Source: Patescibacteria group bacterium (lineage in GTDB: Bacteria > Patescibacteriota > Patescibacteriia > JAHJFT01). Taken from it: 64,000 bases of DNA. Of the stretch, positions 11,156 through 63,682 are shown piece after piece; position 1 is the first letter of the stretch; the number at the start of each line of letters is the position of its first letter. The DNA is taken from contig JAQTTB010000001.1 of the NCBI GenBank assembly GCA_028710985.1, positions 523,014 to 587,013 of the forward strand, read 5' to 3'. The notes beneath the pieces were generated by a model. It was not told where the DNA came from, made no database searches, and worked only from the letters and a program-made list of their open reading frames with translations. The position numbers and the translations under genes were made by a program.

Positions 11156-11156
11156 A

Positions 11157-27415: not shown

Positions 27416-27428
27416 GCGCCGACCCCCT

Positions 27429-29288: not shown

Positions 29289-29310
29289 TCTCAGTTCCCG
29301 ATTCACCGAT

Positions 29311-30381
<1,071 letters not shown>

Positions 30382-34397: not shown

Positions 34398-34419
34398 ACC
34401 TGCCTGCCGGCAGGCAGGT
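34398..34419. repeat. perfect 22-nt palindrome ACCTGCCTGCCGGCAGGCAGGT
   Basis: Intergenic, between the PPIase stop and ATG 34427. Shares its CCTGCCT...AGGCAGG ends with the ~48-nt intragenic element. Confidence 0.85.
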
Positions 34420-34426: not shown

Positions 34427-35572
34427 ATGACCAAGAGGCCGCCATTTTTTAGCAAACCATCCAGGATCATTCTCTGGGTTGCGATTTGCGCGACTGTAAT
34501 TTTTTCAATTTATATTCTTGTCATGCCCAAGGGAAGTACGAAGCAGATCGAGCTCGTGAGCCTCCCAAAGAGAATGCCCACGCCCGAAGAGGTGCGTGGG
34601 ATTTATGTTACTTCGTTCATCGCCGCCCAGCCCGAATTGCGCCAGGAGCTCGTAAATCTCGTTGACCGTACCGACCTCAATACAATGGTTATTGATATCA
34701 AAGATGCCTTAGGCAACCTTGCGTTTGAACCGCGCCGGCCGACTTTCCGCGATATCGGACGCTCCGATATGCAGATAACCGATTTTAGCGAATGGCTTGC
34801 GGACTTGCATGACCGCGGCATCTATACGGTGGCGCGCATGCCGGTTTTTCAGGACGAGGCGCTGGCCCAGGTGCATCCCGAGTGGGCGATTCGCCGGCAG
34901 AGCGGCGGGGTCTGGCATGACTGGCAAGGCAAGGCCTGGATCGATCCGGGCTCCCAGGAAGCCTGGGAGTACATCGCCGACACGGCGCGTGAGGCCTATG
35001 ACCTTGGTTTTGATGAAGTGAATTTTGACTATATCCGCTTTCCTTCGGACGGGGATCTCTCGCAGATTGTATATACCTATCACCGCAACGATGAAAGACG
35101 CAAATATGTCACCATGGAGGAATTCTATGAATGGCTGGACTCGGAGTTGAACTATCTGCCGATCCCGTTGTCTGTCGATCTTTTCGGGCTAACGTATGTC
35201 AAACAGAATCAGGAAGACGATATGAATATCGGCCAGCGCATCGCCGATGCGATTGAACATTTTGAATATATCTGCCCCATGGTTTACGCGAGCCATTATC
35301 CGGCTGGATTTTTGGGATATGAAAACCCGGCGGAACATCCGTACGAAATCGTGAAAGACAGTCTGACTATCGGCGCGGAAATCATCCAGGAATACGGCGG
35401 CGATCCGCATCAGTCGCGGCCGTGGATTCAGGATTTTAACATGGGTGCGGATTACACGCCGGAAATGGTGCGCGGTCAGATTAATGCCGAGCGTGAAGTT
35501 GGTGCAAGTGGTTTCGTCGCCTGGAACGCGCGCAACATTTACTCCGAAGAGGCTTTTAAAAATCTTGAATAA
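34427..35572 (+). CDS. putative glycoside hydrolase-like TIM-barrel protein (DUF4015-like)
   Basis: 381 aa from ATG 34427. N-terminal TM, then RGIYVTSF...LNTMVIDIKD, typical of the family. The TTG at 34391 would translate a palindromic repeat. Confidence 0.7.
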   Translation: MTKRPPFFSKPSRIILWVAICATVIFSIYILVMPKGSTKQIELVSLPKRMPTPEEVRGIYVTSFIAAQPELRQELVNLVDRTDLNTMVIDIKDALGNLAFEPRRPTFRDIGRSDMQITDFSEWLADLHDRGIYTVARMPVFQDEALAQVHPEWAIRRQSGGVWHDWQGKAWIDPGSQEAWEYIADTAREAYDLGFDEVNFDYIRFPSDGDLSQIVYTYHRNDERRKYVTMEEFYEWLDSELNYLPIPLSVDLFGLTYVKQNQEDDMNIGQRIADAIEHFEYICPMVYASHYPAGFLGYENPAEHPYEIVKDSLTIGAEIIQEYGGDPHQSRPWIQDFNMGADYTPEMVRGQINAEREVGASGFVAWNARNIYSEEAFKNLE

Positions 35573-35576
35573 AAAA

Positions 35577-35606
35577 AGTACGGGTAGCATATATGCGACC
35601 CGTACT
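35577..35606. repeat. GCATATATGC-core hairpin, family member 3
   Basis: AGTACGGGTA GCATATATGC GACCCGTACT flanked by an A-run and a T-run, between convergent genes. Confidence 0.8.
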
Positions 35607-35610
35607 TTTT

Positions 35611-37233
35611 TTAATATAATTCTTCTTTTTTCTCTTTGAAGAAATTCACAAAATCTTCAAGCGATTCAATGAGCGCCTTGAACGGCGCTTCAATTATAAC
35701 GTCAAAGATAAATATAAAGAAGTTGATTTTTACGGATTTGAGCGACAGCCATCGGCCGAGCCGGACAATCGGCAAAAAGAGCAGGTCAAAAATCAAAGTT
35801 ATGATATTGCCGCTCGAGCGAATGACGATAAGTTCGTGCGCACTTTGCCGGATTCTGACCCCGAAAAAGCTGATTAAGCTCAGGAACACAATGAATATCG
35901 CGCCGCTCGCGATATTGAATTCAAGTCGGCGCAACCCGTAAATGATAAGTCCAAGGACTCCGACAAAAACCACGGCGTAGATAATATTAAAAATGAAAGT
36001 TACAATCGGGCTGCGGCGCACCACGGTTTGCATGACGATTTTCCCCTGCTCTTCGGGGCTCTTAAAAATTATTTCGCGTAAACCGTCAACGATTTTTTCC
36101 GTGTTCTTTTTGGAAGGAACACGCACCGTCGCGCCGAGGAAGAACATGAGGAGCGGCGGGAAGAGTACGTTTATAGTAACCGGAATGTAGCGGAATTCAT
36201 GGGCGATATAAATATCAAACGGTACCTCGAGGAGAACCGCAAGCACCATTTTTGTGAGAAAAATATAGATCACACTGCGCACCATGCTGCGGCGCAGTTT
36301 GCTCCGGGATTCGTGATAACGGCTGTCGCAGGATTTCCGTATTTCTGAAAAAAACGCTTCTTCCGGACGGAAGGCTGTGCGCGCGAGTTCCGGCTTCTCG
36401 AGGAGTACATCCCGCAGAATGTCGAAAAACACCGTATGCTGCCGGAAGATGCGCAACATTTTTTCGCCGACCGGTTTAACGGCGATGGATTCAATCATTT
36501 TTATTATTTTTTCAAATTCGCGTGCGTAATTTTCTAAATTCTGCTCGCTTGGGGATGACCATTCGGGCCACATCTTTCTTATCATTTCGTAGCGGATGAT
36601 GCCCATGTCGGCTTTCCAGAGAGAACGGAGGTTTGCCACAAAAAGGAGGTAGTCTTTTTCCAGCTCACTCACGCGCAGATCCACGAAATGAACTTTATTG
36701 CTGACCGTCTGCAGCATGAACTGGAGAAGCGCGCGTTCGCGGTCCTTGGGCAGGAGAAGATCCTCAATTTCCGCGGCCGCGGCGCTCCAGAGCCAGTCGA
36801 TATTGCTCCGGTTGTAGGCGCGCGGGTCGGTTTCATTGATTTTTTCTAAAAGAAAAAAATACTTGGAGAGCACCTGCTCTATTTCAAGTATCTTTGTTTC
36901 CGGCACCGTATTATTTTTAAGATATCCGCCGCGGATAAGTTCGTAGGTCAGCGGCCGCGCGATTTCCTGGGATTCAACCCCCGGATAGATGCGGCGTTTG
37001 AGTATCCTCTGGATTGCATTTTTCCGGAGCAGATGGTCGTCCTTATAGTCAACAATGTTGCGGAATCTTTCGTAGACATAGGCAAGCGCGCCGATGATTA
37101 CGTTCACCTGAATCTTTGCGGCACTGGGAGCCGATTCGCCGGCGTGCATTGCCCGTACGTATGAGCTTAAAAATTTTTCCACCAGGGGATATAACTTTAT
37201 GGCCGAGGTGTTTTGCTGATTTGGAATCATCAT
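35611..37233 (-). CDS. large multi-pass membrane protein, function unknown
   Basis: 540 aa. Soluble helical N-terminal half, then about six TM helices in the C-terminal half. Confidence 0.7.
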   Translation of the reverse strand: MMIPNQQNTSAIKLYPLVEKFLSSYVRAMHAGESAPSAAKIQVNVIIGALAYVYERFRNIVDYKDDHLLRKNAIQRILKRRIYPGVESQEIARPLTYELIRGGYLKNNTVPETKILEIEQVLSKYFFLLEKINETDPRAYNRSNIDWLWSAAAAEIEDLLLPKDRERALLQFMLQTVSNKVHFVDLRVSELEKDYLLFVANLRSLWKADMGIIRYEMIRKMWPEWSSPSEQNLENYAREFEKIIKMIESIAVKPVGEKMLRIFRQHTVFFDILRDVLLEKPELARTAFRPEEAFFSEIRKSCDSRYHESRSKLRRSMVRSVIYIFLTKMVLAVLLEVPFDIYIAHEFRYIPVTINVLFPPLLMFFLGATVRVPSKKNTEKIVDGLREIIFKSPEEQGKIVMQTVVRRSPIVTFIFNIIYAVVFVGVLGLIIYGLRRLEFNIASGAIFIVFLSLISFFGVRIRQSAHELIVIRSSGNIITLIFDLLFLPIVRLGRWLSLKSVKINFFIFIFDVIIEAPFKALIESLEDFVNFFKEKKEELY

Positions 37234-44459: not shown

Positions 44460-44504
44460 CAAAATAAAAAAAGAACGGCCGTGTAATTATGCGGCCGTTC
44501 TTTT
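44460..44504. repeat. left copy of the duplicated terminator hairpin flanking the RT island
   Basis: CAAAATAAAAAAAGAACGGCCG (22/22 identical to 46293..46314), then a variable loop and GGCCGTTCTTTT. Serves as the rplL terminator. Confidence 0.85.
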
Positions 44505-44513
44505 GATTTTTTT

Positions 44514-46292: not shown

Positions 46293-46336
46293 CAAAATAA
46301 AAAAAGAACGGCCGCGATATCGTGGGCCGTTCTTTT
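46293..46336. repeat. right copy of the duplicated terminator hairpin flanking the RT island
   Basis: Same 22-mer and same 3' arm as 44460..44504. Serves as terminator of the 745-aa gene on the minus strand. Confidence 0.85.
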
Positions 46337-48574
46337 TTATTCGCTGAATCCGAAATTCCAGACGCCGTTGTCGGCCAGCACCCAGATTTGGCGTGCCGTG
46401 CGATCGATGTAAAAACTTTTTATATTCTGCAGGTCGTTCAGGAGGTATTGAGTTTTGAGTTTACCGTCCTTGGCCAGTACTACAACACGTTTTCCGGCCG
46501 GGTCAAGAATAAATATATTGTCCGTACCCTCGGTCGTCCAAATTTGCGTCGCGCCCGTCAGCGCGGGATCAATGGTCGTAGCCGACCAGGATTGTTTTTC
46601 ACCGGTATAGAATTTATAAATTTCACCATTTGATTTCAGGGCGTAAATCGAGCCGTCAATCGTAATGGCGACTGCGTCCGAAAGATTGACATTCGCAGTT
46701 TTAATCCAGGCCGCGCCGGCCGCGAGCCCGGAATCGGGCGAGCGGTGCTGCTTAAATATTTGGTTCGCCGTGGTGTCCAAGACATAAATATTTGAATTCC
46801 AGCCGGCCGCGTCAATAAAGCTCTTTTGTTCGGCCGCGGCGGCGAGGGGAACGTCCCTCCACGAAAGTCCGGCCACGTCAATTTCCGAAGCCCCTGGGCG
46901 CTGGTCGAAAACCAAATATGAATTATCGCCGGATTTGTAAATCGCGGTAATGCTTTGTATATCCGCATTTTCCCAGTCAACTTCCTGCCAGGCATTCGCG
47001 TCGTCGCGCCAGACATAAAGTTCTTTTGCCCCGGAAAGAATCAAAGTTTTATCGGCGTTTCGCAGGAGATAACGAAAGTTAATCGTCTGGCCTTCGGCGC
47101 TGAGCGGCATGTCGGCGACTTTCTCTAAATCGTTTGGAATGACTTCATGGCGGAGCTCTTGGCGTAAAATATCAATTTGGGCGAGAAGTCCCTGTTTGAT
47201 TTCGCGCTGATCGCGCTTTGCTTCCGGTAGCGACTGGATTGCGGATAGCGCTTGGCTCACAAGCTCACGCGTGCGTTCCTCGTCGCCGTAGATCAGGGTA
47301 CTCTCGGCCTCGTCTTTTATTTGAGTGATCTCAATCACTTTATTATTATAAACCGCCTCGTCTTCGCGTGCATGTTTCCGATAGTTGAGATAAATCAGGC
47401 TCCATGCAAAAAGTAGCACCAGGATAAGGGCGATGATAAAAACCGATTTATTTTTCTTGCCGAGATGGCTGAACCAGCCGACCGAGCGGTCTCCGGTTTC
47501 CTGGGCATCGCTCTTATAGCTCGCGATGGTTTCGGCGCGTTTGCCGTGGAAGTTCGTAATGATAAAAAATAAGTTTTTGAAGAAGCGGCCGGTGATGCCG
47601 ATTGCGCGGAGCGTGATGGCACCGATCCAAATAAAGAATTTGGCAATGCTCCGGGGGAGTTCGCGCGGGGTTGGAGCGATTTTTTCCTCATATTTCGGGC
47701 CGCGTATTGGTATCAGTCGTGAAATTACCGCAGTGAGCCCAGCCCAAATCTTTGAGGCAAACCCAGTGCCGCCGCCTAAAAGATATCGGTCGGTTTCCGC
47801 GGTAGTCGCCTTAAGATGCTCAAGCGAACCTCGGAAATTCTTCGGTGCCGCCGCTTCGGTGCCGACCGGGATAAGTTCTTCATAATGCTGGATGATAATG
47901 GCCGTATATCCGCCGCGCAGACTGCCGTGCAAAAGTTCATTGCGCAGATATTCGACGGATTCGACCGGTTTTTTCGCGGTTACAATCGGCAACAGCCGTT
48001 CTTCGGGGAAGGCTTCGGCCAGTTCGGAGTTTGAGATTATTATGGCATCCCCGCTTTGGATGGAGCCGTACATTACATTTTCAAAAATTTTAACGGGATT
48101 AAAATTATCCGGATCGGATTGAACGTTCTTCGTAAGATCAAAAACGCGGTAACCTTTGCCATCCTGCTTCTGGAAAAACATCATTTTATTCTGGCCGATC
48201 GCGGAGAACGAAAGGTCCGTGCCGGAGCAAGCGGCGATTAAGATATTCAATTTCTTAAGATCCACCGGATTGGATTCTTTGGAGATAAAATCCGTGATAT
48301 TTTTATTGGTCGCCTGTAGGGATTTTTCAAACTCCGCGCCAAAGTCAATGCCATGCTCTTCCTGATAAAATTTTTCAATGCCGTCGATAAAGTTTTCGGT
48401 CAAACGTTCGTAGGCTGGATGGATGGAGTCGATTTTAATAATGCCAAAAATAGATCCGCCTTCATGCGCCGCACCCGGTGGAATTTCAAAATTAAAAACG
48501 CGGTTAATGCATTGGCGGTTCGTTGCGCTTTCTAGGAAAAGCTCGTTTATGAGTATCTCCGGCTTCTTTGACAT
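46337..48574 (-). CDS. large hypothetical membrane protein with C-terminal repeat (beta-propeller-like) domain
   Basis: 745 aa. Cytoplasmic N-domain, two TM helices mid-protein. The C-terminal half has recurring hydrophobic-Y/W-V-L-D type strands (IYVLD, IYALK, IFILD, IWVLAD). Confidence 0.75.
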   Translation of the reverse strand: MSKKPEILINELFLESATNRQCINRVFNFEIPPGAAHEGGSIFGIIKIDSIHPAYERLTENFIDGIEKFYQEEHGIDFGAEFEKSLQATNKNITDFISKESNPVDLKKLNILIAACSGTDLSFSAIGQNKMMFFQKQDGKGYRVFDLTKNVQSDPDNFNPVKIFENVMYGSIQSGDAIIISNSELAEAFPEERLLPIVTAKKPVESVEYLRNELLHGSLRGGYTAIIIQHYEELIPVGTEAAAPKNFRGSLEHLKATTAETDRYLLGGGTGFASKIWAGLTAVISRLIPIRGPKYEEKIAPTPRELPRSIAKFFIWIGAITLRAIGITGRFFKNLFFIITNFHGKRAETIASYKSDAQETGDRSVGWFSHLGKKNKSVFIIALILVLLFAWSLIYLNYRKHAREDEAVYNNKVIEITQIKDEAESTLIYGDEERTRELVSQALSAIQSLPEAKRDQREIKQGLLAQIDILRQELRHEVIPNDLEKVADMPLSAEGQTINFRYLLRNADKTLILSGAKELYVWRDDANAWQEVDWENADIQSITAIYKSGDNSYLVFDQRPGASEIDVAGLSWRDVPLAAAAEQKSFIDAAGWNSNIYVLDTTANQIFKQHRSPDSGLAAGAAWIKTANVNLSDAVAITIDGSIYALKSNGEIYKFYTGEKQSWSATTIDPALTGATQIWTTEGTDNIFILDPAGKRVVVLAKDGKLKTQYLLNDLQNIKSFYIDRTARQIWVLADNGVWNFGFSE

Positions 48575-51127: not shown

Positions 51128-52225
51128 ATGGCTCGAATATCCATAAATATTGTCACCTGGAACGGCATGCGCTATCTTCCCGAGGCGCTTGAGTCGATTT
51201 CTAATCAGACATTCCAGGATATTGAAATAGTGATAATTGATAATGGTTCAACCGACGGCACGGTTGAATATATCCGCGATAATTTTACCGGAATTACGCT
51301 TCTACGGAATATGCGCAACCTCGGTTTCGCGCATGGCCACAATCAGGGAATCCGCTTGGTGCTGAACCGATGGCAGAATCAGGATTTGGAAAATAGTTTC
51401 ATTCTCGTTACTAATCAAGATATTATTTTGCGTAAGGATTTTTTGGAAAAAATGATTTCCGTCGCCGAGACGGCGCCGCGCGCGGCGAGTTTTGGCGGAA
51501 AGTTGTTTAAGGCGTTTTTTGCTACAGCTGAAGATAATATCGAAGACAGCATCAAGTCGGATACGCTCGATTCCACTGGCCTCCGGTGCTTTAGATCGCA
51601 CCGTTTCGTGGACAGGGGGGCTGGTGAGCGCGATCAGGGGCAGTATGATGCCGAGAGGGAGGTTTTCGGTGTATCCGGGGCGATTATGATGCTGCGCGCT
51701 TCGGCACTCGCGAGTGTGAGATATAAAGATGAGTTTTTTGATGAAAATTATTTTGCGTATAAAGAGGATGTCGATCTTGCCTGGCGTTTGCGCTTGGCGG
51801 GATGGGGGAGCCTGTATGTTCCCGAAGCGATCGCTCATCATTACCGCGGCGCCTACTCGGCCGAACGCGCCGGATGGATGGAGACCTGGCGCAGCCGTAA
51901 GAGCCGCTCGATGATTGTCAAATTAAATTCGTACGTCAATCATTACCTGACGATTATAAAAAACGCGCATATCCGCAATATCATCCTGCGCCTCCCGTGG
52001 ATTATTGCCTACGAGCTTAAAAAAAATATTTATTTATTTTTTCTTGAGCCTCGGGTTTTCTGGAAAGGGCTTTTTAAACTTTCCGTGAAGCTTCCGGACG
52101 CGCTCCGTAAGAGAAAATTCATCCTTTCCCGCGCCATGCCTACCGGCCCGCTTCGCCATAGCTTCAGCGAGGCGAGCAGGCAGGCCGCGGCGCGCCCGGC
52201 GGAGATAAGAAAATGGTTCAAGTAA
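51128..52225 (+). CDS. family-2 glycosyltransferase
   Basis: 365 aa from ATG 51128 (ISINIVTWNGMRYL...IIDNGSTDGT). The C-terminal 30 aa include an in-frame palindromic repeat. Confidence 0.88.
   Translation: MARISINIVTWNGMRYLPEALESISNQTFQDIEIVIIDNGSTDGTVEYIRDNFTGITLLRNMRNLGFAHGHNQGIRLVLNRWQNQDLENSFILVTNQDIILRKDFLEKMISVAETAPRAASFGGKLFKAFFATAEDNIEDSIKSDTLDSTGLRCFRSHRFVDRGAGERDQGQYDAEREVFGVSGAIMMLRASALASVRYKDEFFDENYFAYKEDVDLAWRLRLAGWGSLYVPEAIAHHYRGAYSAERAGWMETWRSRKSRSMIVKLNSYVNHYLTIIKNAHIRNIILRLPWIIAYELKKNIYLFFLEPRVFWKGLFKLSVKLPDALRKRKFILSRAMPTGPLRHSFSEASRQAAARPAEIRKWFK
52136..52184. repeat. ~48-nt palindromic element inserted in frame in the GT2 gene
   Basis: TGCCTACCGGCCCGCTTCGCCATAGCTTCAGCGAGGCGAGCAGGCAGG. 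Its reverse complement matches 59836..59885 with one internal mismatch. Translated as PTGPLRHSFSEASRQA. Confidence 0.85.
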
Positions 52226-52229
52226 AAAT

Positions 52230-53021
52230 ATGGACGTCAGTATAATCATCCTAAATTACAAAAGTTCCGGTTTGGCGCGCCAGTGCATTAAAAGCATTGT
52301 TGCAGCTGCGCCGAAACTTGAGTATGAAATTATTGTCGTTGATAACAATTCTCACGACGGCATTGGGAGAATGCTTCGCGAGCAGTTCCCGCAAGTAAAA
52401 TTTATTCAGTCCAGCCGCAACGCCGGCTTTGCCGCGGGCAATAACATCGGCCTGCGCGTCGCCACCGGACGCTATGCCATGATCGTGAATCCGGACATTA
52501 TTGTGAATCCCGGAACCCTGGAGGAAATGGTAAAAGAAATGGATGCCCATCCCGAAATCGGCTTGCTCGCGCCGCAGCTCCTAAATCCCGACAAAACAAT
52601 TCAGTATTCATGCTATCGTCTTCCGACATTCGGCATACCGTTTTATCGCCGCACGCCGCTCGGTCTCACACCTCGCGGTAAGCGCATGATCCGCTCGTAT
52701 CTTATGGCCGAATGGGACCATGCCGCTCCGCGCGAGATTGATTGGTGCGTCGCCGCCTGCATCATGGTTCGGCGAAGCGCCGTTGAGTGCGTTGGTTATT
52801 TTGACGAAAGATATTTTATGTATTTTGAAGACGCCGACTGGTGCCGTCGGTTTCATCAAGCCGGATTCAGGGTAGTATATTTTCCACGTGCAAAAATGTT
52901 TCATTATCACATCCGTCAGTCCGCTGATGTGCCGTGGTTCATGGGATTATTTCAAAAAATAAGCCGCATCCATATGGCAAGCGCGTTAAAATATTTCTGG
53001 AAGTGGAAGGGCAAGGAATAA
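52230..53021 (+). CDS. family-2 glycosyltransferase
   Basis: 263 aa. VSIIILNYKS...VVDNNSHDG and the DxD region YFEDADWC. Confidence 0.88.
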   Translation: MDVSIIILNYKSSGLARQCIKSIVAAAPKLEYEIIVVDNNSHDGIGRMLREQFPQVKFIQSSRNAGFAAGNNIGLRVATGRYAMIVNPDIIVNPGTLEEMVKEMDAHPEIGLLAPQLLNPDKTIQYSCYRLPTFGIPFYRRTPLGLTPRGKRMIRSYLMAEWDHAAPREIDWCVAACIMVRRSAVECVGYFDERYFMYFEDADWCRRFHQAGFRVVYFPRAKMFHYHIRQSADVPWFMGLFQKISRIHMASALKYFWKWKGKE

Positions 53022-53038
53022 ATATTTAAAATAAAAAA

Positions 53039-55078
53039 ATGTACGAGTATCCAACAAATTTTGTCGCGCAGGCTCCGAGTGAAGTTCGTAATGTCCGGGT
53101 CGGCCGGCCGAAGTGGCCGTATATCGGAGCGGTGCTTTTGATTATTATCGTTGTATTGGTAATCGCCGCCGTGCCCTACGCCCTGCTTGCCAACAATATT
53201 TACAACGAGGCTCTTGCCGGAAAGGCAAATTTAGAAGAAGCGCAGAATTACGCCGTGGCGCTTAAATTTGACGGCGCCCGCGAGCAGATCGACGACGCGG
53301 TTGGGCACTTTATATCGGCGCGCCGGAGCTTTATTCCGTTCAAAATTTTTATTTGGATGCCGTGGATCGGAAGGCAGATTAAAGCCGTGGACAGTCTTTT
53401 GGAAACCGGAGTTGAAACATCCGAAGCGGTCGGCGACCTTCTCGAGGTCGGTGAAGAAATTTATAAAGTTTTTGAATTGTCCGAAGAAATCAAGGCGGAC
53501 ATTAAGCCCGAAATATCCGGCGGCGTCCGGTTCATTGATCTTGACCGCGAAACAAAAAGAGAAATTTTGAAAAAATTATACGAGTCGGGTCCGCGCATCC
53601 AGGAAGCGCTCGTCCGCATCGACCTCGCCATATCGAGCTTCAGCCGTATTCCGCAGGACGATTTGGCCAAGCCGCTCCGCGACGCCATCGCGCCGTTTGC
53701 CGACAAGCTTCCGGAATTCAAGAAACAGCTGACGCTCGCCGTGCCGCTCGTAAAGATTCTGCCCGAACTCGCCGGTTATCCCGAACCGAAAAATTATCTT
53801 ATACTATTATCCAACAACGCCGAGCTCCGGCCGGCTGGCGGATTTCTTGGCACTTATGGAATATTTAAGGTCGCGGACGGTGAAATTCTGGACCTCTCGA
53901 CCCACGATGTGTACGCGCTTGACCGCCAGGCCGAATCTTTTTTGCGCGTGGATCCGCCGCCGCCGCTCGTGAAATATCTCAAGGTGAACAACTGGTATAT
54001 GCGCGACGCCAACTGGTCGCCGGATTTTGCTGCGTCGGCGCAGAAGGTTCTTTGGTTTTATTCCGAAGAGGCGCGCGGGGTTGCCACCCGCCGCGGTTCG
54101 CCGCTCCCCGAAGCGCCGCTTATAAATTTTAACGGCGTGATTTCCGTGAACCCGACCGTAGTTGCGGACATTCTTTCTATCATCGGCCCGATTACGATTG
54201 AAAATCAAACATTTAATTCTGAGAATTTTATTGATTCGCTCGAGTATCAGGTTGAAGTTGCTTTTCTTTCCGACGGCACCCCGCGCAGTCAGCGAAAAGA
54301 AATTATTAGCCTGCTTTCGGCGGAGATAATTGATAAATTATTTTCACTCCCGGCTGTGAAATGGATAGATGTTCTACGCGAGGCAGAACGTGGGCTGGAA
54401 GAGCGGGAAATTATTGTTTATGAAAACGACCCCGATATTCAGGAATCGCTTGAATTCCAAAATTGGGCCGGACGCGTCCGGTCGACTGACGGAGATTTCC
54501 TGAAAGTCGTTGACGCCAATCTCGCGAGTCTTAAAACCGATCCGTACGTTGAGCGTCAAATCAAATACGAATCTTGGTTTGAGGAGGACGGCGCTCTCAT
54601 GGCCCGGGTGAATATTCATTATAAAAACACAGCCGGCTTCAGCTGGAAGACGACGCGTTATCGCACTTATACCCGCGTCTACGCGCCCGAGGGAAGTGAG
54701 TTGGTTTCCGTTACCGGCAGTCTCAGGGATGATAAACTCGCCAATCCCGGTCTTGAGCCCGGCACGCCGGACGAATATAACGAGCTCGGCAAAACGGTTT
54801 TTGGCGCCTTCACCGCCATTGAGCCCGGAGCCCAGGGCGATCTTGTCTTCACCTACAAACTGCCCGAGTCGGTCAGCGCAATGATAAAGAACGGAGATTA
54901 TAATCTTTACGTTGAAAAACAGGCCGGAGCGGTGGCTTATGGCTTGACTTTGTCCCTGAATTTTGATAAAAACTTAAAGCAAGCCGAACCGGCAGAGCTT
55001 GAATCGCACTGGGGAGACCGGAGTTATAATCTTGAGACCGACCTTAGGGTCGATCGCACCGTCAATATAAAATTCTAA
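53039..55078 (+). CDS. DUF4012 domain protein
   Basis: 679 aa. N-terminal TM and the hallmark LLSNNAELRPAGGFLGTYG. Confidence 0.82.
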   Translation: MYEYPTNFVAQAPSEVRNVRVGRPKWPYIGAVLLIIIVVLVIAAVPYALLANNIYNEALAGKANLEEAQNYAVALKFDGAREQIDDAVGHFISARRSFIPFKIFIWMPWIGRQIKAVDSLLETGVETSEAVGDLLEVGEEIYKVFELSEEIKADIKPEISGGVRFIDLDRETKREILKKLYESGPRIQEALVRIDLAISSFSRIPQDDLAKPLRDAIAPFADKLPEFKKQLTLAVPLVKILPELAGYPEPKNYLILLSNNAELRPAGGFLGTYGIFKVADGEILDLSTHDVYALDRQAESFLRVDPPPPLVKYLKVNNWYMRDANWSPDFAASAQKVLWFYSEEARGVATRRGSPLPEAPLINFNGVISVNPTVVADILSIIGPITIENQTFNSENFIDSLEYQVEVAFLSDGTPRSQRKEIISLLSAEIIDKLFSLPAVKWIDVLREAERGLEEREIIVYENDPDIQESLEFQNWAGRVRSTDGDFLKVVDANLASLKTDPYVERQIKYESWFEEDGALMARVNIHYKNTAGFSWKTTRYRTYTRVYAPEGSELVSVTGSLRDDKLANPGLEPGTPDEYNELGKTVFGAFTAIEPGAQGDLVFTYKLPESVSAMIKNGDYNLYVEKQAGAVAYGLTLSLNFDKNLKQAEPAELESHWGDRSYNLETDLRVDRTVNIKF

Positions 55079-55081
55079 ATT

Positions 55082-56086
55082 ATGTGGGTTAAAAAAATCG
55101 GCATTGATCTCGGAACAGCAACCGTGCTTGTCTACGTTCCAAAACGCGGCATCATTTTGAATGAGCCGTCGGTTGTTGCGATTTCCACGATTGATAAAAA
55201 AGTTCTGGCCGTGGGTCGCGAAGCGAAAGACATGCTCGGCCGCACGCCGGATTCAATCATTGCGCGCCGTCCCTTGAAAGACGGCGTAATTGCCGATTAT
55301 CGCACTACCGAAGCGATGCTTAAATATTTCATTAACAAGGCGCTGGGTGGCATGCGTCTTTTTCGTCCCGAGGTTATGGTCGCGGTTCCGGGCGGCATTA
55401 CCTCAACCGAGCGCCGCGCCGTGATTGACGCGGCCATCGCCGCCGGCGCCAAAGCGGCCTACATCATCAAAGAACCGATTGTCGCGGCCATCGGCGCCGA
55501 TATTCCGATTGGCAGCGCGTCCGGCCACATGGTTGTTGACATCGGCGGCGGCACCGCCGAGATTGCCGTAATCTCTTTGGGCGGAATCGTGGCTTCTGAA
55601 TCGGTGCGCATCGGCGGCACGAAGTTCGATCTCGCCATCATGGAGCACGTACGCCGCAAATACGGTCTCGCCATCGGCGAGCGCACGGCCGAAGAAGTAA
55701 AAATCAATATTGGCTCGGCCATGTATATGGAAAATAAATTGACCATGGAAGTAAAAGGCCGCGACATGATGACCGGATTGCCGCGCATCATCACCATCAC
55801 TTCGGACGATATTACCGATGCGATTCAAAATGAACTTGACGGTATCATTGACGCCATCAAAGACGTTTTGCAAAAAACCCCGCCCGAACTTTCGGCCGAT
55901 GTCATGGACAAGGGCATGATTTTGACCGGCGGTTCAGCCCTGCTTCGCAATCTTGGCCAACTTTTCCGCGAAGCAACCGGCGTGTCCGCCTACGTAGCGG
56001 ATGAGCCCCAGCTCTGCGTGGCAAAGGGCACCGGCATCGCGCTTGAAAATCTTGAATCCTACAAGCGTTCTATTTTTTCCGGATAA
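55082..56086 (+). CDS. mreB: rod shape-determining protein MreB
   Basis: 334 aa. Actin-fold motifs IGIDLGTATVLVYV and VVDIGGGTAEIAV. Confidence 0.95.
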   Translation: MWVKKIGIDLGTATVLVYVPKRGIILNEPSVVAISTIDKKVLAVGREAKDMLGRTPDSIIARRPLKDGVIADYRTTEAMLKYFINKALGGMRLFRPEVMVAVPGGITSTERRAVIDAAIAAGAKAAYIIKEPIVAAIGADIPIGSASGHMVVDIGGGTAEIAVISLGGIVASESVRIGGTKFDLAIMEHVRRKYGLAIGERTAEEVKINIGSAMYMENKLTMEVKGRDMMTGLPRIITITSDDITDAIQNELDGIIDAIKDVLQKTPPELSADVMDKGMILTGGSALLRNLGQLFREATGVSAYVADEPQLCVAKGTGIALENLESYKRSIFSG

Positions 56087-56095
56087 AAATTTATT

Positions 56096-57223
56096 ATGAT
56101 CATTGGGATTGAGGCGGCTCGTCCGAACCGGCCGCAAAAAACCGGCACCGAATGGTACGGTTACCACGTGATTCAGGAAATTAAAAAAATCGCCGATCCT
56201 TCGGATCGGTTTATTTTATATACAAATGATCCTCTCCGTTCCGGCCTTGAGATAATGCCCAATGCGAACTGGCGCGAGAAGCGGCTCGGCTGGCCGATTC
56301 CGAAGTTTTGGACCCAGGGCCGCCTGTCGCTCGAGATGCTCGTAAATTCGCCGGATGCGGTTTTTATACCCGCGCATGCCATGCCAATTATTCATGTCAA
56401 GAATACGGTGGTCACTCTGCATGACGTTGGTTTTGAAAGATTTCCCGAGCTTTATTCCCGCGCCGATCTCTGGTACCACCGTTGGTCCGCGAAATTCATC
56501 ATCCGCCATGCCGCGAAAATTATCACGGTTTCAAATTTTTCAAAAAACGAACTCGTTGAGCTTTATGGCGCTCCGGCGGAAAAAATCTTTGTTACGCATC
56601 TGGGCTACGATGCCGAACGCTATCGGGTTATTGAGCCGGCCGAGGTGGAAAAAGTTTTACTGAAGCATAGAATCAAAACGCCGTATATTTTTTATATCGG
56701 CCGCCTGGAGCGCAAAAAAAATATTCCGCTGCTTATTGAAGCCTTCGGACGCTTTAAGCAAAAGAATCAAAACGACTCGCACTCGCTCGTTCTGGTCGGT
56801 CGGCCGGGATTTGATTATGAAAAAATTCAGGAAAATATAAAAAAATTCAATCTTGAACAATGGGTAATCCAAACCGGCTGGGTGGGGGAGGATAGTATCC
56901 CGTATTTTTACAACGGCGCGGCGGCGTTTGTTTTTCCGAGCCGTTACGAAGGCTTCGGCATCCCGCTCATTGAAGCAATGGCCTGCGGCACGCCGATTCT
57001 CGCGTCGCGCGCCGGGTCCATTCCCGAAGTTGCGGCCGATGCGGCGTTGTATTTTGAAACCGAGAGTGCGGATTCGCTCATCGCGGGCATGGAAAATATT
57101 CTGAACAATCAGGAGTTGCGCGGCTGTCTCCGCGCCGCCGGCTTGGCCCGCTGCCAAAATTTTTCCTGGGCTCGTACCGCCCGTCAGACTTTGGAAATTT
57201 TGAAATCAAATTCTAGATTCTAG
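56096..57223 (+). CDS. family-4 (GT-B) glycosyltransferase
   Basis: 375 aa. EGFGIPLIEAMACGTPILASRAGSIPEV motif. Confidence 0.9.
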   Translation: MIIGIEAARPNRPQKTGTEWYGYHVIQEIKKIADPSDRFILYTNDPLRSGLEIMPNANWREKRLGWPIPKFWTQGRLSLEMLVNSPDAVFIPAHAMPIIHVKNTVVTLHDVGFERFPELYSRADLWYHRWSAKFIIRHAAKIITVSNFSKNELVELYGAPAEKIFVTHLGYDAERYRVIEPAEVEKVLLKHRIKTPYIFYIGRLERKKNIPLLIEAFGRFKQKNQNDSHSLVLVGRPGFDYEKIQENIKKFNLEQWVIQTGWVGEDSIPYFYNGAAAFVFPSRYEGFGIPLIEAMACGTPILASRAGSIPEVAADAALYFETESADSLIAGMENILNNQELRGCLRAAGLARCQNFSWARTARQTLEILKSNSRF

Positions 57224-57245
57224 CTTCTAGATTCTAGATTCTCCG
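57211..57245. repeat. heptamer tandem array TTCTAGA/TTCTAGC (4 to 5 units)
   Basis: TTCTAGA TTCTAGC TTCTAGA TTCTAGA TTCTCCG. Spans the GT4 stop codon, upstream of the TrmB paralog 1 promoter. Confidence 0.85.
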
Positions 57246-57250
57246 CCGCC

Positions 57251-57270
57251 TCCCCGCAAGGGGATTTTTT
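57251..57270 (+). terminator. intrinsic terminator after the GT4 gene
   Basis: TCCCC-GCAA-GGGGA followed by TTTTTT. Confidence 0.7.
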
Positions 57271-57297
57271 GTGTTATAATGTTGACATAATTTCAAT

Positions 57298-58065
57298 ATG
57301 ATTGAACAGGAGTTGCAAAAATTTGGCTTAAGCCAAAAAGAAATTAAGGTCTACCTTTCTTCGCTCCAGAGCGGTCCGCGCTCGGCGCAGGAGATTTCGC
57401 GCGTTGCCGGCGTCAACCGTGTCACGTGCTATGTCATCCTTGAATCCCTAAAGGGATACGGCTTGGTTACCCAGGTGGACGGGGAACGGGGCCGGCTTTT
57501 TGCCGCGGAAAATCCGGCGAATATCATAAGATTTTTGGAATCCCGCGAAAGAGAAATCCAGGATGTGAAGGCCAGGGTGCACCGCGCTATGCCTGAACTC
57601 ATGGCGATATTCAACGGCTTAGGCGATAAGCCGCTCATCCGTTTCCTTGACGGCATTGAAGGCATTGAGGTTATCCAGCGGGAGGTTTTTGAAAAAGATG
57701 TCAAAAACATTGACAGCATCGCCTGCCTGGATGCGGCGTTTGAACATATTGATCCCTACGAGTTCACCGAATATCGTGAGAACATGATCGCCAAGAAAAT
57801 TACCGGACGGACAATCTACACTTCAAAAAAATATACAACCGAATATCTGCCCGACGGATATGAAAAATGCCAGGAATTGCGCCGCCTGCCGTTTGAAAAA
57901 TTTAATTTTCCCGCCGAAATCTGGATTGCGGATAATTTCGCCGCCATTTTCAGCTTTCAGGGCAAGCCGGCGGTTATCGCGATTGAGCATCCTGCCATTA
58001 TTGCCGCAATGAAAACCTGGTTTGAGCTCGCGTGGGAAGCGGCCGCGCACCACGCCCAGCAATAA
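57298..58065 (+). CDS. TrmB-family transcriptional regulator, paralog 1
   Basis: 255 aa. N-terminal wHTH LQKFGLSQKEIKVYLSSLQSGPRSAQEISRVAGVNRVTCYVILESL. Confidence 0.8.
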   Translation: MIEQELQKFGLSQKEIKVYLSSLQSGPRSAQEISRVAGVNRVTCYVILESLKGYGLVTQVDGERGRLFAAENPANIIRFLESREREIQDVKARVHRAMPELMAIFNGLGDKPLIRFLDGIEGIEVIQREVFEKDVKNIDSIACLDAAFEHIDPYEFTEYRENMIAKKITGRTIYTSKKYTTEYLPDGYEKCQELRRLPFEKFNFPAEIWIADNFAAIFSFQGKPAVIAIEHPAIIAAMKTWFELAWEAAAHHAQQ

Positions 58066-58087
58066 ATTAAAGAAAACATTTTTAAAT

Positions 58088-60067
58088 ATGGCGTTTAAAA
58101 ATCTTTTTGAGCCGATAATGATCGGCTCGCTCAAATTAAAAAATCGTTTGGTCCTGCCACCCATGGTGCGAAACTGGGCAACCGAACGCGGCGAGGTGAC
58201 CGACCGATTGGTGGATCATTATGCCGCCCTCGCTCGCGGCGGTACGGCCATGCTGATTCTTGAGGCGATCTATGTTTCGCCCGAGGGTCGCGGCTTTACT
58301 TATCAGATGGGCATCGATAATGATGCCTTGGTTCCGGGACTAAAAAAATTAGTTGATGCCGCGCATCAATATGGCGCGGCAATCGGGCCGCAGCTATATC
58401 ATGCCGGCCGCCAGACAAACTCAAAAACTATCAGCCAGCCGCCGGTCGCGCCTTCGCCCATCCCGTGCCCGGTTCAGCGGGAAATGCCGCGCGAACTCTC
58501 GGCCGAGGAAATTTCCGAAATTGAAAACGCCTTCGCCGCGGCCGCCCTGCGCGCCAAGGGAGCGGGATTTGATTTTGTTGAAGTGCACGGTGCGCACGGT
58601 TATCTCATTACGCAATTTTTATCCGCGTATTCAAACAAAAGAAAAGACGCGTACGGCGGCGATCTTGAAGGCCGCATGGCATTTTTAAAAAATATCATTA
58701 AAAAAATTAGAGCTGCGGTTGGCCCGGATTATCCCGTGACCGTGCGGCTTTCGGGTGAGGAGCGCGTTCCCGGCGGTCTCACCATTGACGACACGAAAAA
58801 AATCGTCAAAGAGCTGGAAAAACTCGGCATTGACGCGGTGCACATTTCCGTCGGCAATTACGGAAGCTTTGCCGAGGGACTCATGATTCCGACCATGGCC
58901 GCGCCGACCGGAGCGCTGGTATATCTCGCCGAACAGGTGAAGAAATCAACCAGGCTGCCGGTAATCGCGGTCGGAAAAATCAACACCCCCGAACTCGCTG
59001 AAGAAATTATTGCGAACGGCCAGGCCGATATGGTTGCCCTCGGCCGGGAGCTTATGGCCGATCCGGAATGGCCGAACAAGGTGCGCGATGGCCGCGCCGA
59101 TGAGATTCAGCGGTGCATTGCCTGCAACCAGGGATGCATTGACCGGCTGTTTGCCGGGCTTGATACTCAGTGCGTGGTCAATCCGCTTTTCGGGCGCGAA
59201 CGCGAATTCGCGGTTACCCCGGCGGCTGATTTAAAAAAAATCATGGTGATCGGCGGCGGTCCGGCGGGCATGCAGGCCGCGATTGTCGCCAAGAAACGCG
59301 GACATGGAGTTGCGATTTATGAACAAGGAAGCGAACTTGGCGGCGCTTTGCTTTTTGCGCAGAAACCGCCGCATCGCGAGGGCATCGCCTGGCTGGTTAA
59401 GGATTTTATCGCTCAAATACACGAACTCGGCATTGAGGAAAATTTCAATACCGAAGTGACGCCCGAACTTGTCGCCGAGGTCAAACCCGACGCGATTATT
59501 ATCGCCACCGGCTCGGAGTGTGCCCTTCCTCCGATTCCGGGAGTAAATCTGCCGAACGTGATGTCGCCGCGCGATGTTCTTTCCGGCCAGGTCAGAGTTG
59601 GAAATAGTGTTATCGTCGCTGGCGGCGGCTGTGTCGGCGCCGAGGTAGCCGAATATTTGGTCGAGCGCGGACATAAAGTGAAAATTGTGGAAATGAGAGA
59701 GGCGATTGTCAGCGATCTTGGATTTGCGGACGGCGTTCAGCTGCGCGCCCGTTTGGAAAAACTTGGCGTTGAAATTTTTACAAAAACAAAAATTCTTGAA
59801 ATAAAAAAAGACGGTATTGTGATTGAGCGCGAAGGCCTGCCTGCTCGCCTCGCTGAAGCTGTGGCGAAGCGGGCCGGTAGGCAGGGCAAACGCGATGAAA
59901 TCGGTGGCGAGAGTCTGGTGCTTTGCCTCGGCTCAAAATCGGTTAATGATCTCGAAAAATTGCTCGTCGGAGCCGCGTCCGAAATCGTGGTTGTCGGCGA
60001 CGCCGTGGAACCGCGGCGTATTCTTGAAGCGGTCTACGAAGGCTATGCCGCCGGATTAAATATTTAA
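58088..60067 (+). CDS. NADH:flavin oxidoreductase (OYE domain plus FAD/NAD(P)-binding domain, 2,4-dienoyl-CoA-reductase-like)
   Basis: 659 aa from ATG 58088. OYE TIM-barrel (HGAHGYLITQFLS), 4Fe-4S Cys motif (CIACNQGC), Rossmann GGGPAGM. A 17-aa in-frame repeat-derived insert lies near the C-terminus. Confidence 0.88.
   Translation: MAFKNLFEPIMIGSLKLKNRLVLPPMVRNWATERGEVTDRLVDHYAALARGGTAMLILEAIYVSPEGRGFTYQMGIDNDALVPGLKKLVDAAHQYGAAIGPQLYHAGRQTNSKTISQPPVAPSPIPCPVQREMPRELSAEEISEIENAFAAAALRAKGAGFDFVEVHGAHGYLITQFLSAYSNKRKDAYGGDLEGRMAFLKNIIKKIRAAVGPDYPVTVRLSGEERVPGGLTIDDTKKIVKELEKLGIDAVHISVGNYGSFAEGLMIPTMAAPTGALVYLAEQVKKSTRLPVIAVGKINTPELAEEIIANGQADMVALGRELMADPEWPNKVRDGRADEIQRCIACNQGCIDRLFAGLDTQCVVNPLFGREREFAVTPAADLKKIMVIGGGPAGMQAAIVAKKRGHGVAIYEQGSELGGALLFAQKPPHREGIAWLVKDFIAQIHELGIEENFNTEVTPELVAEVKPDAIIIATGSECALPPIPGVNLPNVMSPRDVLSGQVRVGNSVIVAGGGCVGAEVAEYLVERGHKVKIVEMREAIVSDLGFADGVQLRARLEKLGVEIFTKTKILEIKKDGIVIEREGLPARLAEAVAKRAGRQGKRDEIGGESLVLCLGSKSVNDLEKLLVGAASEIVVVGDAVEPRRILEAVYEGYAAGLNI
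59836..59885. repeat. ~50-nt palindromic element inserted in frame in the OYE oxidoreductase gene (opposite orientation)
   Basis: CCTGCCTGCTCGCCTCGCTGAAGCTGTGGCGAAGCGGGCCGGTAGGCAGG, translated as LPARLAEAVAKRAGRQG. Confidence 0.85.
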
Positions 60068-60071: not shown

Positions 60072-60836
60072 ATGAAACTTGAAAAAACATTGAACAAGCT
60101 CGGACTCTCGGACAAGGAAGCGCGCGTCTACCTCGCCGCGCTTGAACTCGGGCCCGAGGCCGTGCAGGAGATTGCCAAAAAATCCGGCGTCAACCGCGCC
60201 ACCACTTACGTGATGATTGAGTCGCTCATCCGGCGCGGGCTCATGAGCTCATACGAGCAGGGGAAAAAACGGCTTTTCGCGCCAGAAGAACCCAACCGGC
60301 TTTTTAACTCTCTGAAATCCGCGGAGCAGGAAATTGAAGAAAGACAAAGCGCGCTTAAGTCAATCATGCCCGATCTTCTCGCCATTTGCGCTGGCGCCGA
60401 AAACAAGCCGCGCATCAGATTATTTGAGGGCTACGAAGGCATCATCTCCATAAAACAAGATATTCAGGAATCGGGAACTGATTATATGGATAACATACTT
60501 GATATGGATGAATTCAAAAGAATATTTTCTGGCCATGAGTTTGATGAGCAGAATAAAAAATTTTTTAAAAGTAAATTAAACTATCGCTGCATTTTAACCT
60601 CCGGTCCGCTGGAACAAGAAATATTAGAAAAGTTTAAAGTGTTTTCTGGCATCAGATTCTTGGAAAGAGGAAAATTTTTTTTCCCGGGAGAGATCGGGAT
60701 GTACGCAAACAAGTCCGCGTTCCTAACTTATCGCGGCACCATGATCGGCGTAATAATTGAAAGTGCGGAAATCAATCAAATGCTTCGGGCCATGTTCAGC
60801 ATGCTTTGGGAGATGAATATTGGCGAAAAATTATAA
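60072..60836 (+). CDS. TrmB-family transcriptional regulator, paralog 2
   Basis: 254 aa. LNKLGLSDKEARVYLAALELGPEAVQEIAKKSGVNRATTYVMIESL. Same architecture as 57298..58065. Confidence 0.8.
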   Translation: MKLEKTLNKLGLSDKEARVYLAALELGPEAVQEIAKKSGVNRATTYVMIESLIRRGLMSSYEQGKKRLFAPEEPNRLFNSLKSAEQEIEERQSALKSIMPDLLAICAGAENKPRIRLFEGYEGIISIKQDIQESGTDYMDNILDMDEFKRIFSGHEFDEQNKKFFKSKLNYRCILTSGPLEQEILEKFKVFSGIRFLERGKFFFPGEIGMYANKSAFLTYRGTMIGVIIESAEINQMLRAMFSMLWEMNIGEKL

Positions 60837-62464: not shown

Positions 62465-63682
62465 CTAGTGAACGAACGGGTCCCAGTCGTTGTCATCGCT
62501 GCCGCCGCACCAATCTGCCTCATAATCGTCTCGATCGTGATCCGGGCAGACCGAGAAGTAATGGGGGCCGAGTTGGGGTTCGGGCGTGCAGCGTTCCGAG
62601 GTTGTGGTCTTGCCTGCGACCCGCAAGTCGTTGAGGTTCAGAAGCCCGAACTGGACTTCGCCGCTATAAAGACCTATATAGATCCTTACCTTCAGGTATG
62701 GATTGTCGATTTCCGGCATCGTTATATTCTCGAAAACGAAACCGCCATCATCTTCTTGGGCTACGTTTCCGAGAAAGGCATCTACCGACATGCCGTCTCT
62801 GACGCCATGCGCCCAAAGGATTGCGACAATTCCTGCGGGGCCTCCGCTTATCGGGATCGGTGTTTCGCCGCGCGTCTGATGCACGGCCAACCGTTCGATC
62901 GTATCACCCGGTTCCAGATTGGTTGTGGCAAAGGAAAGCAAGTATTCATCCGGACTCTCCATATACCACAGCGTGGGGGATTCGGGAACGCATGAGTAGA
63001 TCAGCTCGAGGCCGATCGCCACCTGGCCTTCGGGAACCCCGTCCTCGAATGGGCAAAAGCCCGATTCGCCTGGGCAGTTGTGTTCGCACACACCCTCGTC
63101 GATCTCGCCGTCACAGTCGTTGTCGTGGATGAGGTCGCATACTTCTTCAGCGCCCGGATGGATGTCGGCGCGATGATCGTTGCAGTCGTCGCCATTCGTC
63201 ACGTACCCCGGGGGCATCTCGGTGGCCGGACAGTGTAGAGAAGTGCTGGTGCTGTCCACTCCGCCGAACCCGTCGCCGTCTTCGTCAAAGAATATCAGGA
63301 CGCGGTCGATCTGGTCATGGACGCACGCGCCGTCGAAGCCGCACACGTCCATGGTGCACAGATCGCCGTCGTCGCAGTCCAGGTGACTCTCGCAGGACGG
63401 GGAGCAGAGGGGGTCCTCGCTCGGTGTCTGTACGCACGCGCCGCTCTCGCAGCTACCTATAGTGCACGGATCTTCGTCCATGCAGTCCGAGTCTTCGTCG
63501 CATTCCAGACAATCCGGAATCGCGAAGTGCTGGCACTCGGCCACGGAGTCGCACACATCGCTGGTGCACGGGTCACCGTCGTCGCAGTCGGTTGAGCACT
63601 CGATCGGATCGCCGTCGACCCTATCCGTTCCGTAGCATCCCATGAGCATCGCGGCCACGAACAGTATTACGATATTCCTCAT
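62465..63682 (-). CDS. Cys/Asp-rich secreted lipoprotein with MopE-like metal-binding repeat and myxo-type disulfide repeats
   Basis: 405 aa. Lipobox LMGC, repeated CDDGDPCT.D.C modules, and DEDGDGFG...DCND...HPGAEEVCD..DNDCDGEIDEG. GGGAGGATGAG upstream of the ATG. Terminator 62325..62362. Confidence 0.75.
   Translation of the reverse strand: MRNIVILFVAAMLMGCYGTDRVDGDPIECSTDCDDGDPCTSDVCDSVAECQHFAIPDCLECDEDSDCMDEDPCTIGSCESGACVQTPSEDPLCSPSCESHLDCDDGDLCTMDVCGFDGACVHDQIDRVLIFFDEDGDGFGGVDSTSTSLHCPATEMPPGYVTNGDDCNDHRADIHPGAEEVCDLIHDNDCDGEIDEGVCEHNCPGESGFCPFEDGVPEGQVAIGLELIYSCVPESPTLWYMESPDEYLLSFATTNLEPGDTIERLAVHQTRGETPIPISGGPAGIVAILWAHGVRDGMSVDAFLGNVAQEDDGGFVFENITMPEIDNPYLKVRIYIGLYSGEVQFGLLNLNDLRVAGKTTTSERCTPEPQLGPHYFSVCPDHDRDDYEADWCGGSDDNDWDPFVH

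Follow-up and report, generated by a model that had tools for sequence, protein, structure and literature searches.

Near-identical GC-rich palindromes lie in frame in two unrelated genes of a Patescibacteria genome and belong to a short repeat family shared by many uncultivated bacteria

The stretch of DNA analysed here, hereafter the window, covers 64,000 nt of contig JAQTTB010000001.1 from a Patescibacteria group bacterium. Two of its genes, unrelated in function, encode an Old-Yellow-Enzyme (OYE)-type oxidoreductase and a GT2 family glycosyltransferase, and each contains one copy of a palindromic element of 50 nt (Table 1). A sequence-only reading of the window had pointed to these near-identical palindromes, lying in the two genes in opposite orientations. 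When the window was searched on both strands with the 50-mer, allowing at most 3 mismatches, the same two copies (named A and B below) were found, and no match was obtained in 100 dinucleotide-preserving shuffles of the window. The copies differ at loop position 26 (G/A) and at position 49 (G/T), so that the internal difference first described is correct, whereas the two terminal ones come down to a single sub-terminal base. In a repeat search, the similarity between them reached 61 nt at 92%. Both reading frames are kept, as had been noticed, the element adding the peptide LPARLAEAVAKRAGRQG to the oxidoreductase and MPTGPLRHSFSEASRQA to the glycosyltransferase. A shorter intergenic palindrome with the same ends had also been reported. 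It lies within the 38-nt spacer of two co-directional open reading frames (ORFs), and is a true member of the family, the same palindrome being present at 12 other element-bearing loci. The 64 kb of genome thus contain two full copies and one arms-only copy.

Table 1. Element copies, inserted codons and host genes in the 64,000-nt window.
Feature	Position	Strand	Remarks
Host gene 1, P0001: Old-Yellow-Enzyme (FMN) + FAD/NAD(P) oxidoreductase, 659 aa	58088..60067	+	Pfam Oxidored_FMN, Pyr_redox_2, Pyr_redox
Copy A, 50 nt, element-sense	59836..59885	+	CCTGCCTGCTCGCCTCGCTGAAGCTGTGGCGAAGCGGGCCGGTAGGCAGG; exact match; nhmmer 62.5 bits against the family model
17-codon (51-nt) insertion in the OYE/FAD oxidoreductase, peptide LPARLAEAVAKRAGRQG	59837..59887	+	gap in homologues
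Host gene 2, P0121: GT2 family glycosyltransferase, 365 aa	51128..52225	+	Pfam Glycos_transf_2
Copy B, 50 nt, reversed relative to host gene	52135..52184	-	2 mismatches; nhmmer 61.4 bits
17-codon (51-nt) insertion in the tail of the GT2 glycosyltransferase, peptide MPTGPLRHSFSEASRQA	52136..52186	+	GCC on both sides
Arms-only perfect palindrome, 20 nt, shortest form of the family, intergenic	34399..34418	.	CCTGCCTGCCGGCAGGCAGG

Both window copies are insertions. The two host proteins are residue-for-residue identical in the NCBI metagenome-assembled genome (MAG) 'Patescibacteria group bacterium'. In alignment A1, which gathers oxidoreductase homologues from Patescibacteria, Armatimonadota, Desulfobacterales and Carboxydothermus (47-64% identity), the 17 residues of LPARLAEAVAKRAGRQG face a gap in all 24 aligned sequences; the protein has 659 aa here against 641-642 aa in its closest relatives, and the closest solved structure, 6QKG, is without these residues. 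The 19 orthologues of the glycosyltransferase have 348-350 aa against 365 aa here, and the surplus is exactly MPTGPLRHSFSEASRQA, placed 12 codons upstream of the stop. A syntenic relative, L144 (L-numbers are the labels of comparison loci in this analysis), has the gene order GT2-ASCH-GT2-DUF4012-MreB-GT4-TrmB-OYE-TrmB; it contains neither insert, and no copy of the element was found within its 17.5 kb. At each of its two empty sites stands a single GGC/GCC codon, versus GGC...GGC in the window. Because GGC is present on both flanks, the register of the OYE insert is ambiguous by 3 nt. The two TrmB-family regulator paralogues that bracket the oxidoreductase gene (57298-58065 and 60072-60836) keep this arrangement in L144.

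The position of the OYE insert was examined on a model of the oxidoreductase obtained with AlphaFold2 and alignment A1 (mean pLDDT, the predicted local distance difference test, of 90.7). The insert, at about residues 583-599, is the sole long stretch of low confidence (pLDDT ~50); the model gives it a weak helix, at the tip of the beta-hairpin that strands 576-581 and 602-606 form in the nucleotide-binding domain. Both inserts lie where the host protein tolerates a loop or a tail. An assembly artefact is ruled out for the OYE copy, because independent Logan assemblies of other sequencing runs show 0 differences over 3980 nt of this locus. On these three points, absence from orthologues, location in a loop and reality of the inserted DNA, the suspicion of an insertion voiced by the sequence-only reading was well founded.

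The element is widespread. An exact 24-mer from its left half, searched in GTDB species-representative genomes, matched 21 contigs, mostly of candidate phyla radiation (CPR) lineages; their labels include Saccharibacteria, Shapirobacteria, Sungiibacteriota, Liptonbacteria, Kaiserbacteria, Falkowbacteria, Spechtbacterales and Patescibacteria group, while 7 of the 21 contigs are labelled Gammaproteobacteria and 1 Planctomycetia. The G+C content of these GTDB loci ranges from 37 to 60%. For the right half, an exact 23-mer was used, and the metagenome contigs that matched it, from groundwater, sediment and similar samples, number more than 120 at the least. A nhmmer model then detected 150 copies in 912 kb of loci, 127 of them distinct by their flanks. 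The idea that the element is specific to one lineage was not upheld, since the same element is found in many CPR lineages and in some other bacteria.

The consensus of the family is CCTGCCTGCTCGCCTCGCTGAAGCTCCGGCGAAGCGGGCCGGCAGGCAGG. Its arms, CCTGCCTGCTCGCCTCG and GGCGAAGCGGGCCGGCAGGCAGG, are almost invariant and are separated by a loop of 0-13 nt. Pairing joins positions 1-10 to 41-50, 12-14 to 37-39, and 16-19 to 33-36; every length class retains the C11-C40 mismatch and a bulged T15, which make the palindrome asymmetric. The outer arms form perfect terminal inverted repeats of 9-10 bp (CCTGCCTGC / GCAGGCAGG), and positions 8, 20, 21, 26 and 27 are freely variable. Since the copies were collected with exact seeds, the unseeded half is the only unbiased sample: its arm is 95% identical to the consensus, against 68-73% for the loop. 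No covariation was seen in loop or arms, in a sample whose exact seeding does not make it a fair covariation test. Both window copies fold into an imperfect hairpin, with energies of -41.2 (copy A) and -45.5 kcal/mol (copy B) for the strand reading CCTGCC, and of -33.4 and -34.9 kcal/mol, respectively, for the opposite strand; the former is more stable because two of its pairs are G-U.

Three length classes, of 50 nt (81 copies), 44 nt (17 copies) and 41 nt (14 copies), differ in the loop only. A further small hairpin is nested in the loop in L017, L103, L115 and L114/L125. The arms-only palindrome, of 19-21 nt, was found at 13 places including the window; in L006 a full copy directly adjoins it, and in L099 the halves of a near-identical arms-only palindrome enclose a full copy. 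Divided by three, the principal lengths (20, 41, 44, 50, 71, 80 and 89 nt) all leave a remainder of 2, and so do those of 117 of the 127 distinct copies. This shared property is suggestive. A fixed one-base junction, or a whole-codon core, would then always keep the frame.

Copies of the 44-nt class are found on contigs unlike those of CPR bacteria, namely L061 (encoding a GspD secretin), L136 (multihaem cytochromes, DnaB) and L107 (DapA), and the host range therefore extends beyond Patescibacteria. Some labels call for caution. Locus L004 belongs to a genome labelled 'uncultured Gammaproteobacteria', and encodes at 2225-6881 an RNase Y-like protein and an 812-aa RecA, probably intein-containing; these two genes make its gammaproteobacterial label doubtful, and the taxonomic label of several element-bearing MAGs is probably wrong. 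Larger repeated units were also noticed around the 44-nt class. In L136, a 73-nt unit made of the element and about 12 nt on each side occurs twice, inverted and 6.9 kb apart (4137-4209 and 11079-11151), and the two units bracket ordinary-looking genes. In L084, L109 and L107, a second perfect hairpin, CCCCGTGGCAGAGACCACGGGG, directly precedes the element, and about 75 nt upstream are 97% conserved though the wider flanks do not align, a pattern which suggests that the hairpin pair may be part of a larger composite repeat.

This family of 41-50-nt elements is apparently new to the literature: no description of it was found in the literature searched, including searches for literal DNA and peptide strings. 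When the encoded peptides were concatenated and compared to a protein database, 2 weak matches were obtained. A 2024 review of prokaryotic MITEs (short for miniature inverted-repeat transposable elements) makes no mention of these phyla (PMC10969869).

We next asked where the copies lie relative to genes, on ORFs called mechanically with a simple greedy procedure. Among 138 distinct copies, 46 were inside ORFs; intergenic copies were counted at 38 with tandem, 11 with convergent and 7 with divergent neighbours. About 30 copies are deep inside identified genes, and a conservative subset, in frame within identifiable genes, amounts to some 32. Given a coding fraction of about 80-90%, as measured in the window, the element is depleted from genes, yet far from excluded. 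The in-frame hosts include ribonucleotide reductase, topoisomerase I, CysRS, ArgRS, GAPDH, RecX, MiaA, PNPase, ribosomal proteins L6 and S5, MnmA, an IF-2-like GTPase, a RecG-like helicase, an epimerase and a ComF-like protein. In L131 (427-3012), two adjacent genes, coding for a membrane protein (438 aa) and a DegT/DnrJ aminotransferase, each have an in-frame copy, one of the 41-nt class and the other with degenerate ends. The GAPDH gene of L017 (184-1254) contains in frame both the element and a second hairpin of 21 nt nested in its loop, and the resulting segment, DLPARLAEAPARLDARLAKRAGRQG, cuts the match to the NAD-binding domain in two.

Copies inside genes occur in both orientations. Five of the six frames of the element are open, the sixth having a TGA. 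Among 38 spanning frames, 18 antisense ones read LPAGPLRRSFSEASRQ and 7 sense ones read LPARLAEAPAKRAGRQ, both in the phase C/CTG...CAG/G (slashes standing for codon boundaries); with one curated frame per element, about 26 of 32 are in this phase. The net insert is always a multiple of three, but is not constant relative to the length of the element: 51 nt in both window genes, 48 nt in the L6 gene, and 42 nt for the 41-nt class. A CG-dinucleotide target at codon boundaries was considered as the cause of the phase bias and rejected, as 51% of genic CG dinucleotides of this genome are located there, not enough to account alone for the some 80% of copies in the preferred phase. We attribute the excess over 51% to selection on the peptide, and it probably reflects mostly which peptides are tolerated.

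Between genes, the element shows no preferred orientation: for the 38 copies in tandem context, 17 are in the same and 19-21 in the opposite orientation. A role as terminator, judged from the orientation of neighbouring genes, was not retained, as no clear pattern emerged from the tandem, convergent and divergent counts given above. Moreover, no T run follows the window copies or is present in the consensus flanks, and copies are found inside ORFs, which does not fit an intrinsic terminator. Searches with Rfam 15 gave 0 matches at the gathering score in the window, with sub-threshold microRNA noise on the element (E <= 10), and tRNA and rRNA only on 20 loci. The core-site motifs of integron attC sites (RYYYAAC ... 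GTTRRRY) are absent from the consensus, extrahelical bases being present. Contamination by an adapter or linker, judged against common adapters, was dismissed, given that copies are mutated, nested, in frame and diversely flanked. In L029, L036, L076, L118 and L045, the element stands, in a region of about 100 nt, amid 3-4 TTCGTA direct repeats spaced by 8-10 nt, shortly upstream of mraZ or ftsW; these repeats could be MraZ-type operator boxes.

How old are these insertions? Some inserts are shared by related species, and decayed copies are present at the same site in relatives (L081 compared to L067, L055 compared to L119), indicating that the family has long been inserting. The MnmA genes of L010 and L040, an apparently orthologous pair, are informative in this respect: the insert is at the same codon in both, and its copies match at 46 of 50 positions while the flanks are only about 52% identical. 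All four differences fall in the loop or on the last base. From this pair it seems possible that the arms are maintained.

Taken together, we consider it rather probable that the hairpin is selfish DNA, non-autonomous and mobilised in trans, and that selection filters which of its copies survive inside genes. The two window copies would be recent insertions of a short, GC-rich imperfect palindrome, dispersed at low copy number through many Patescibacteria (CPR) lineages and other uncultivated bacteria, and copied by machinery encoded elsewhere; its free loop can itself receive further small hairpins. Copies within genes would be the survivors, those with a net length multiple of three and no stop codon, situated in a surface loop or a tail. 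They would mostly be in the one phase that yields hydrophilic, Pro/Gly/Ser/Arg-rich peptides, LPAGPLRRSFSEASRQ or LPARLAEAPAKRAGRQ. Movement and selfishness are here what we infer from this distribution.

Several results weigh against such an account. No mobilising gene was found in the 912 kb of flanks, and no pair of arms enclosing gene-sized cargo in the same loci. Viral contigs, which were scanned, and plasmids, compared by blastn, contained no copy, and yielded no vector. Presence/absence polymorphism between close strains was not observed, so that recent movement is deduced rather than seen. The conservation of the arms in the MnmA pair, far above that of the flanking coding DNA, is not predicted by plain selfish decay, and arms that are near-identical across very distant lineages call either for horizontal transfer on a frequent scale or for constraint. 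Finally, the gathering of copies with exact-match seeds leads to an under-sampling of diverged ones.

The search for a linked gene deserves some detail. Clustering of the 1265 flanking ORFs gave only housekeeping families. By tblastn and motif search, one Y1 (IS200-like) transposase gene was detected in the 912 kb, in L014 (5892-6542; Pfam Y1_Tnp, E = 5e-8), 2.6 kb away from a copy inserted in the N-terminus of ribonucleotide reductase. Neither end of this gene has an element or a comparable hairpin.

Arm conservation also opens the way to a different explanation, the main alternative, in which the element would be a functional motif, either a strand-specific site for binding or processing by a conserved protein, or an RNA hairpin with a regulatory or stabilising role, maintained by purifying selection or by concerted evolution (repeated re-copying) wherever it lies, genes included. 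The 95% invariance of the arms around a free loop, the mismatch and bulge retained in every length class, and the identical arms of the MnmA pair all agree with it, and so does the fact that many intergenic copies adjoin tRNA genes or the regulatory-looking repeat arrays upstream of mraZ/ftsW. We nevertheless hold it to be rather unlikely: compensatory covariation is missing, mismatches show no strand preference (38 A-C versus 22 G-T), intergenic copies are not oriented, other copies clearly decay, and the positions occupied in unrelated proteins share no functional logic. Furthermore, MnmA is the single informative orthologous pair found, and the two insertions there may be independent. Much less credit still can be given to the view that the segments are ancestral protein loops, or artefacts of assembly or chimera formation. 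They are missing in all homologues and in the solved structure, the independent assemblies from other runs are identical, and the same 50-mer recurs in more than 100 independent assemblies, within unrelated genes and spacers, mutated, nested and in frame, which makes this view extremely improbable.

The way of insertion separates the remaining explanations. An ordinary MITE, derived by deletion from an insertion sequence (IS) with a DDE transposase and moved by cut-and-paste, would have terminal inverted repeats, which the outer arms of the element do form, and would leave a 3-bp target duplication. The GGC flanking both window copies, together with the single GGC/GCC at the empty sites of L144, could be read in this way. 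However, a test of 126 copies, made in every register and for k = 3-6, showed no abutting direct repeat of a fixed length; a GGC-type flank register is present for 4 copies (the two of the window and two others) against 1.4 expected, and the direct identity of flanks is at chance level. Neither a parent element nor a transposase for it was found in the 912 kb, and described bacterial MITEs are larger than these 41-50 nt, so that we regard this origin as improbable. No clear target motif emerged either: T is rare at -1 and A at +1, and the commonest flanks, ATC upstream or GAT downstream, are each found for about 10% of the copies. Variable junctions (+51, +48 and +42 nt in the examples above) would be expected if hairpin RNA were inserted by a reverse transcriptase, through an RNA or cDNA intermediate, or if the element were filler DNA from break repair. 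Flanking direct repeats of at least 7 nt are indeed four times commoner than expected (16 of 125 copies, versus 3% at random adjacent positions). But as several of them belong to heptamer or TTCGTA arrays that were already there, as upstream of mraZ/ftsW, they are not read as duplications made upon insertion. There are no A-tails and no series of 5' truncations, and no reverse-transcriptase family is present among the protein clusters shared between loci, no screen having been aimed at reverse-transcriptase genes. An origin of this type seems very improbable to us.

Returning to a selfish element mobilised in trans, the enzyme involved would recognise the hairpin folded on one strand, in the way of IS200/IS605 or of repetitive extragenic palindromic (REP) sequences and their REP-associated tyrosine transposases (RAYT), rather than make a staggered double-strand cut. 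We advance this refinement as a doubtful one; it is prompted by the asymmetry of the conserved palindrome and by insertions without fixed-length target duplication. A broader proposal, which we also view as unlikely, makes the element a substrate for an unrecognised but widely shared hairpin-specific insertion system, operating without target duplication and adding to genes peptide loops that keep the frame and have no stop. Its arms would then be held constant from phylum to phylum by selection or by continual re-copying, and not by recency.

The sequence-only reading had compared the element with Rickettsia palindromic elements (RPEs), and the parallel is right as regards behaviour, an in-frame palindrome being tolerated in unrelated genes, but not as regards membership of the RPE family, from which size and host differ. 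Both repeats are found between genes and in frame in unrelated housekeeping genes, lengthen proteins by a peptide where the fold allows it, and inhabit the small, gene-dense genome of a host-dependent bacterium (PMC10969869). RPEs measure about 150 bp, make up some ten families, and are confined to the genus Rickettsia (PMC10969869). Compared with RPEs as they have been described, the present element is a single hairpin of 41-50 nt, lives in other hosts, and is near-identical across many candidate phyla. It resembles REP and REPIN repeats with their RAYT by its short, imperfect and asymmetric palindromes occurring as single units, by the lack of target duplication, and by the plausible involvement of an enzyme acting in trans. 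REPs are extragenic, have a GTAG-type tetranucleotide on their 5' side, and are clustered around their RAYT gene; here, in contrast, 46 of the 138 distinct copies are inside ORFs, neither consensus nor flanks have a GTAG, and the Y1_Tnp gene is not flanked by the element. Elements derived from IS200/IS605 insert 3' of a conserved tetra- or pentanucleotide; the absence of duplication fits such an origin, whereas a conserved upstream motif is lacking.

Like the bacterial MITEs (Correia/NEMIS, ERIC, RUP, BOX), the element has terminal inverted repeats, is non-autonomous, and is occasionally fused in frame to ORFs (PMC10969869). It differs from them in having no fixed target-site duplication and no identifiable parent IS in the 912 kb of flanks, and in being shorter by a factor of two to ten. 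Fungal mitochondria have mobile GC-rich hairpin clusters and double-hairpin elements, which spread in AT-richer compact genomes, enter coding regions, and nest. GC-rich palindromes, insertion into coding sequence and nesting are thus common to the two, but the fungal hairpins are organellar, and some are skipped by the ribosome or interrupt genes, whereas the inserts described here are in frame and stop-free, and therefore presumably translated. As it lacks some of the features that define RPEs, MITEs and REPs, we regard it as a coding-tolerant palindromic repeat outside any named family.

Other repeats were noticed in the window. GC-rich palindromes of the form GTAGGGGCG(N)CGCCCCTAC, all intergenic, are present at 26617-26653, 27388-27424, 27570-27606 and 28494-28530. 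They are perfect or near-perfect, begin with GTAG like REP sequences, and may constitute a separate repeat family. Segments 27567-27873 and 28491-28802 belong to a stretch of about 0.93 kb duplicated in tandem (88 nt at 99%, 173 nt at 87%), which carries paralogous genes for N-terminally anchored proteins (27702-28421 and 28631-29233). Hairpins with an A run and a T run, such as AAAAAAAGTACGGGTAGCATATATGCGACCCGTACTTTTTTT, occur at 11118-11181, 25668-25738, 35552-35639, 44460-44508 and 46293-46341; they resemble intrinsic terminators of the bidirectional type, and two groups related in sequence can be told apart among them. Tandem arrays of heptamers (GTGAATCA GTGAATCA GTGGATCA and the complement) are located at 18313-18343 and 29296-29326, and arrays of a similar kind flank the hairpin element in L070, L002 and L035. 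At the GC-rich end of the window, a direct repeat of 57 nt is found at 63323-63379 and 63533-63589, with 79% identity and a distance of 210 nt.

The genomes of CPR bacteria are among the smallest and most gene-dense known and are thought to be poor in repeats, and their proteins are noted for unexplained insertions. If confirmed, the element would follow Rickettsia as the second clear example of selfish DNA regularly housed in the coding sequences of bacteria, and would be by far the shortest and the most widespread; it would also point to the existence of a mobilising enzyme. The recurrent peptide of 16-17 residues is an insert that annotation and structure pipelines should recognise. Were a hairpin-specific insertion system at work, the element would be no decaying MITE; it would form a new class among mobile elements and give CPR bacteria a source of innovation in protein loops. 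Once confirmed, the element would also account for part of the lineage-specific loops of CPR proteins, and mark gene flow among these bacteria.

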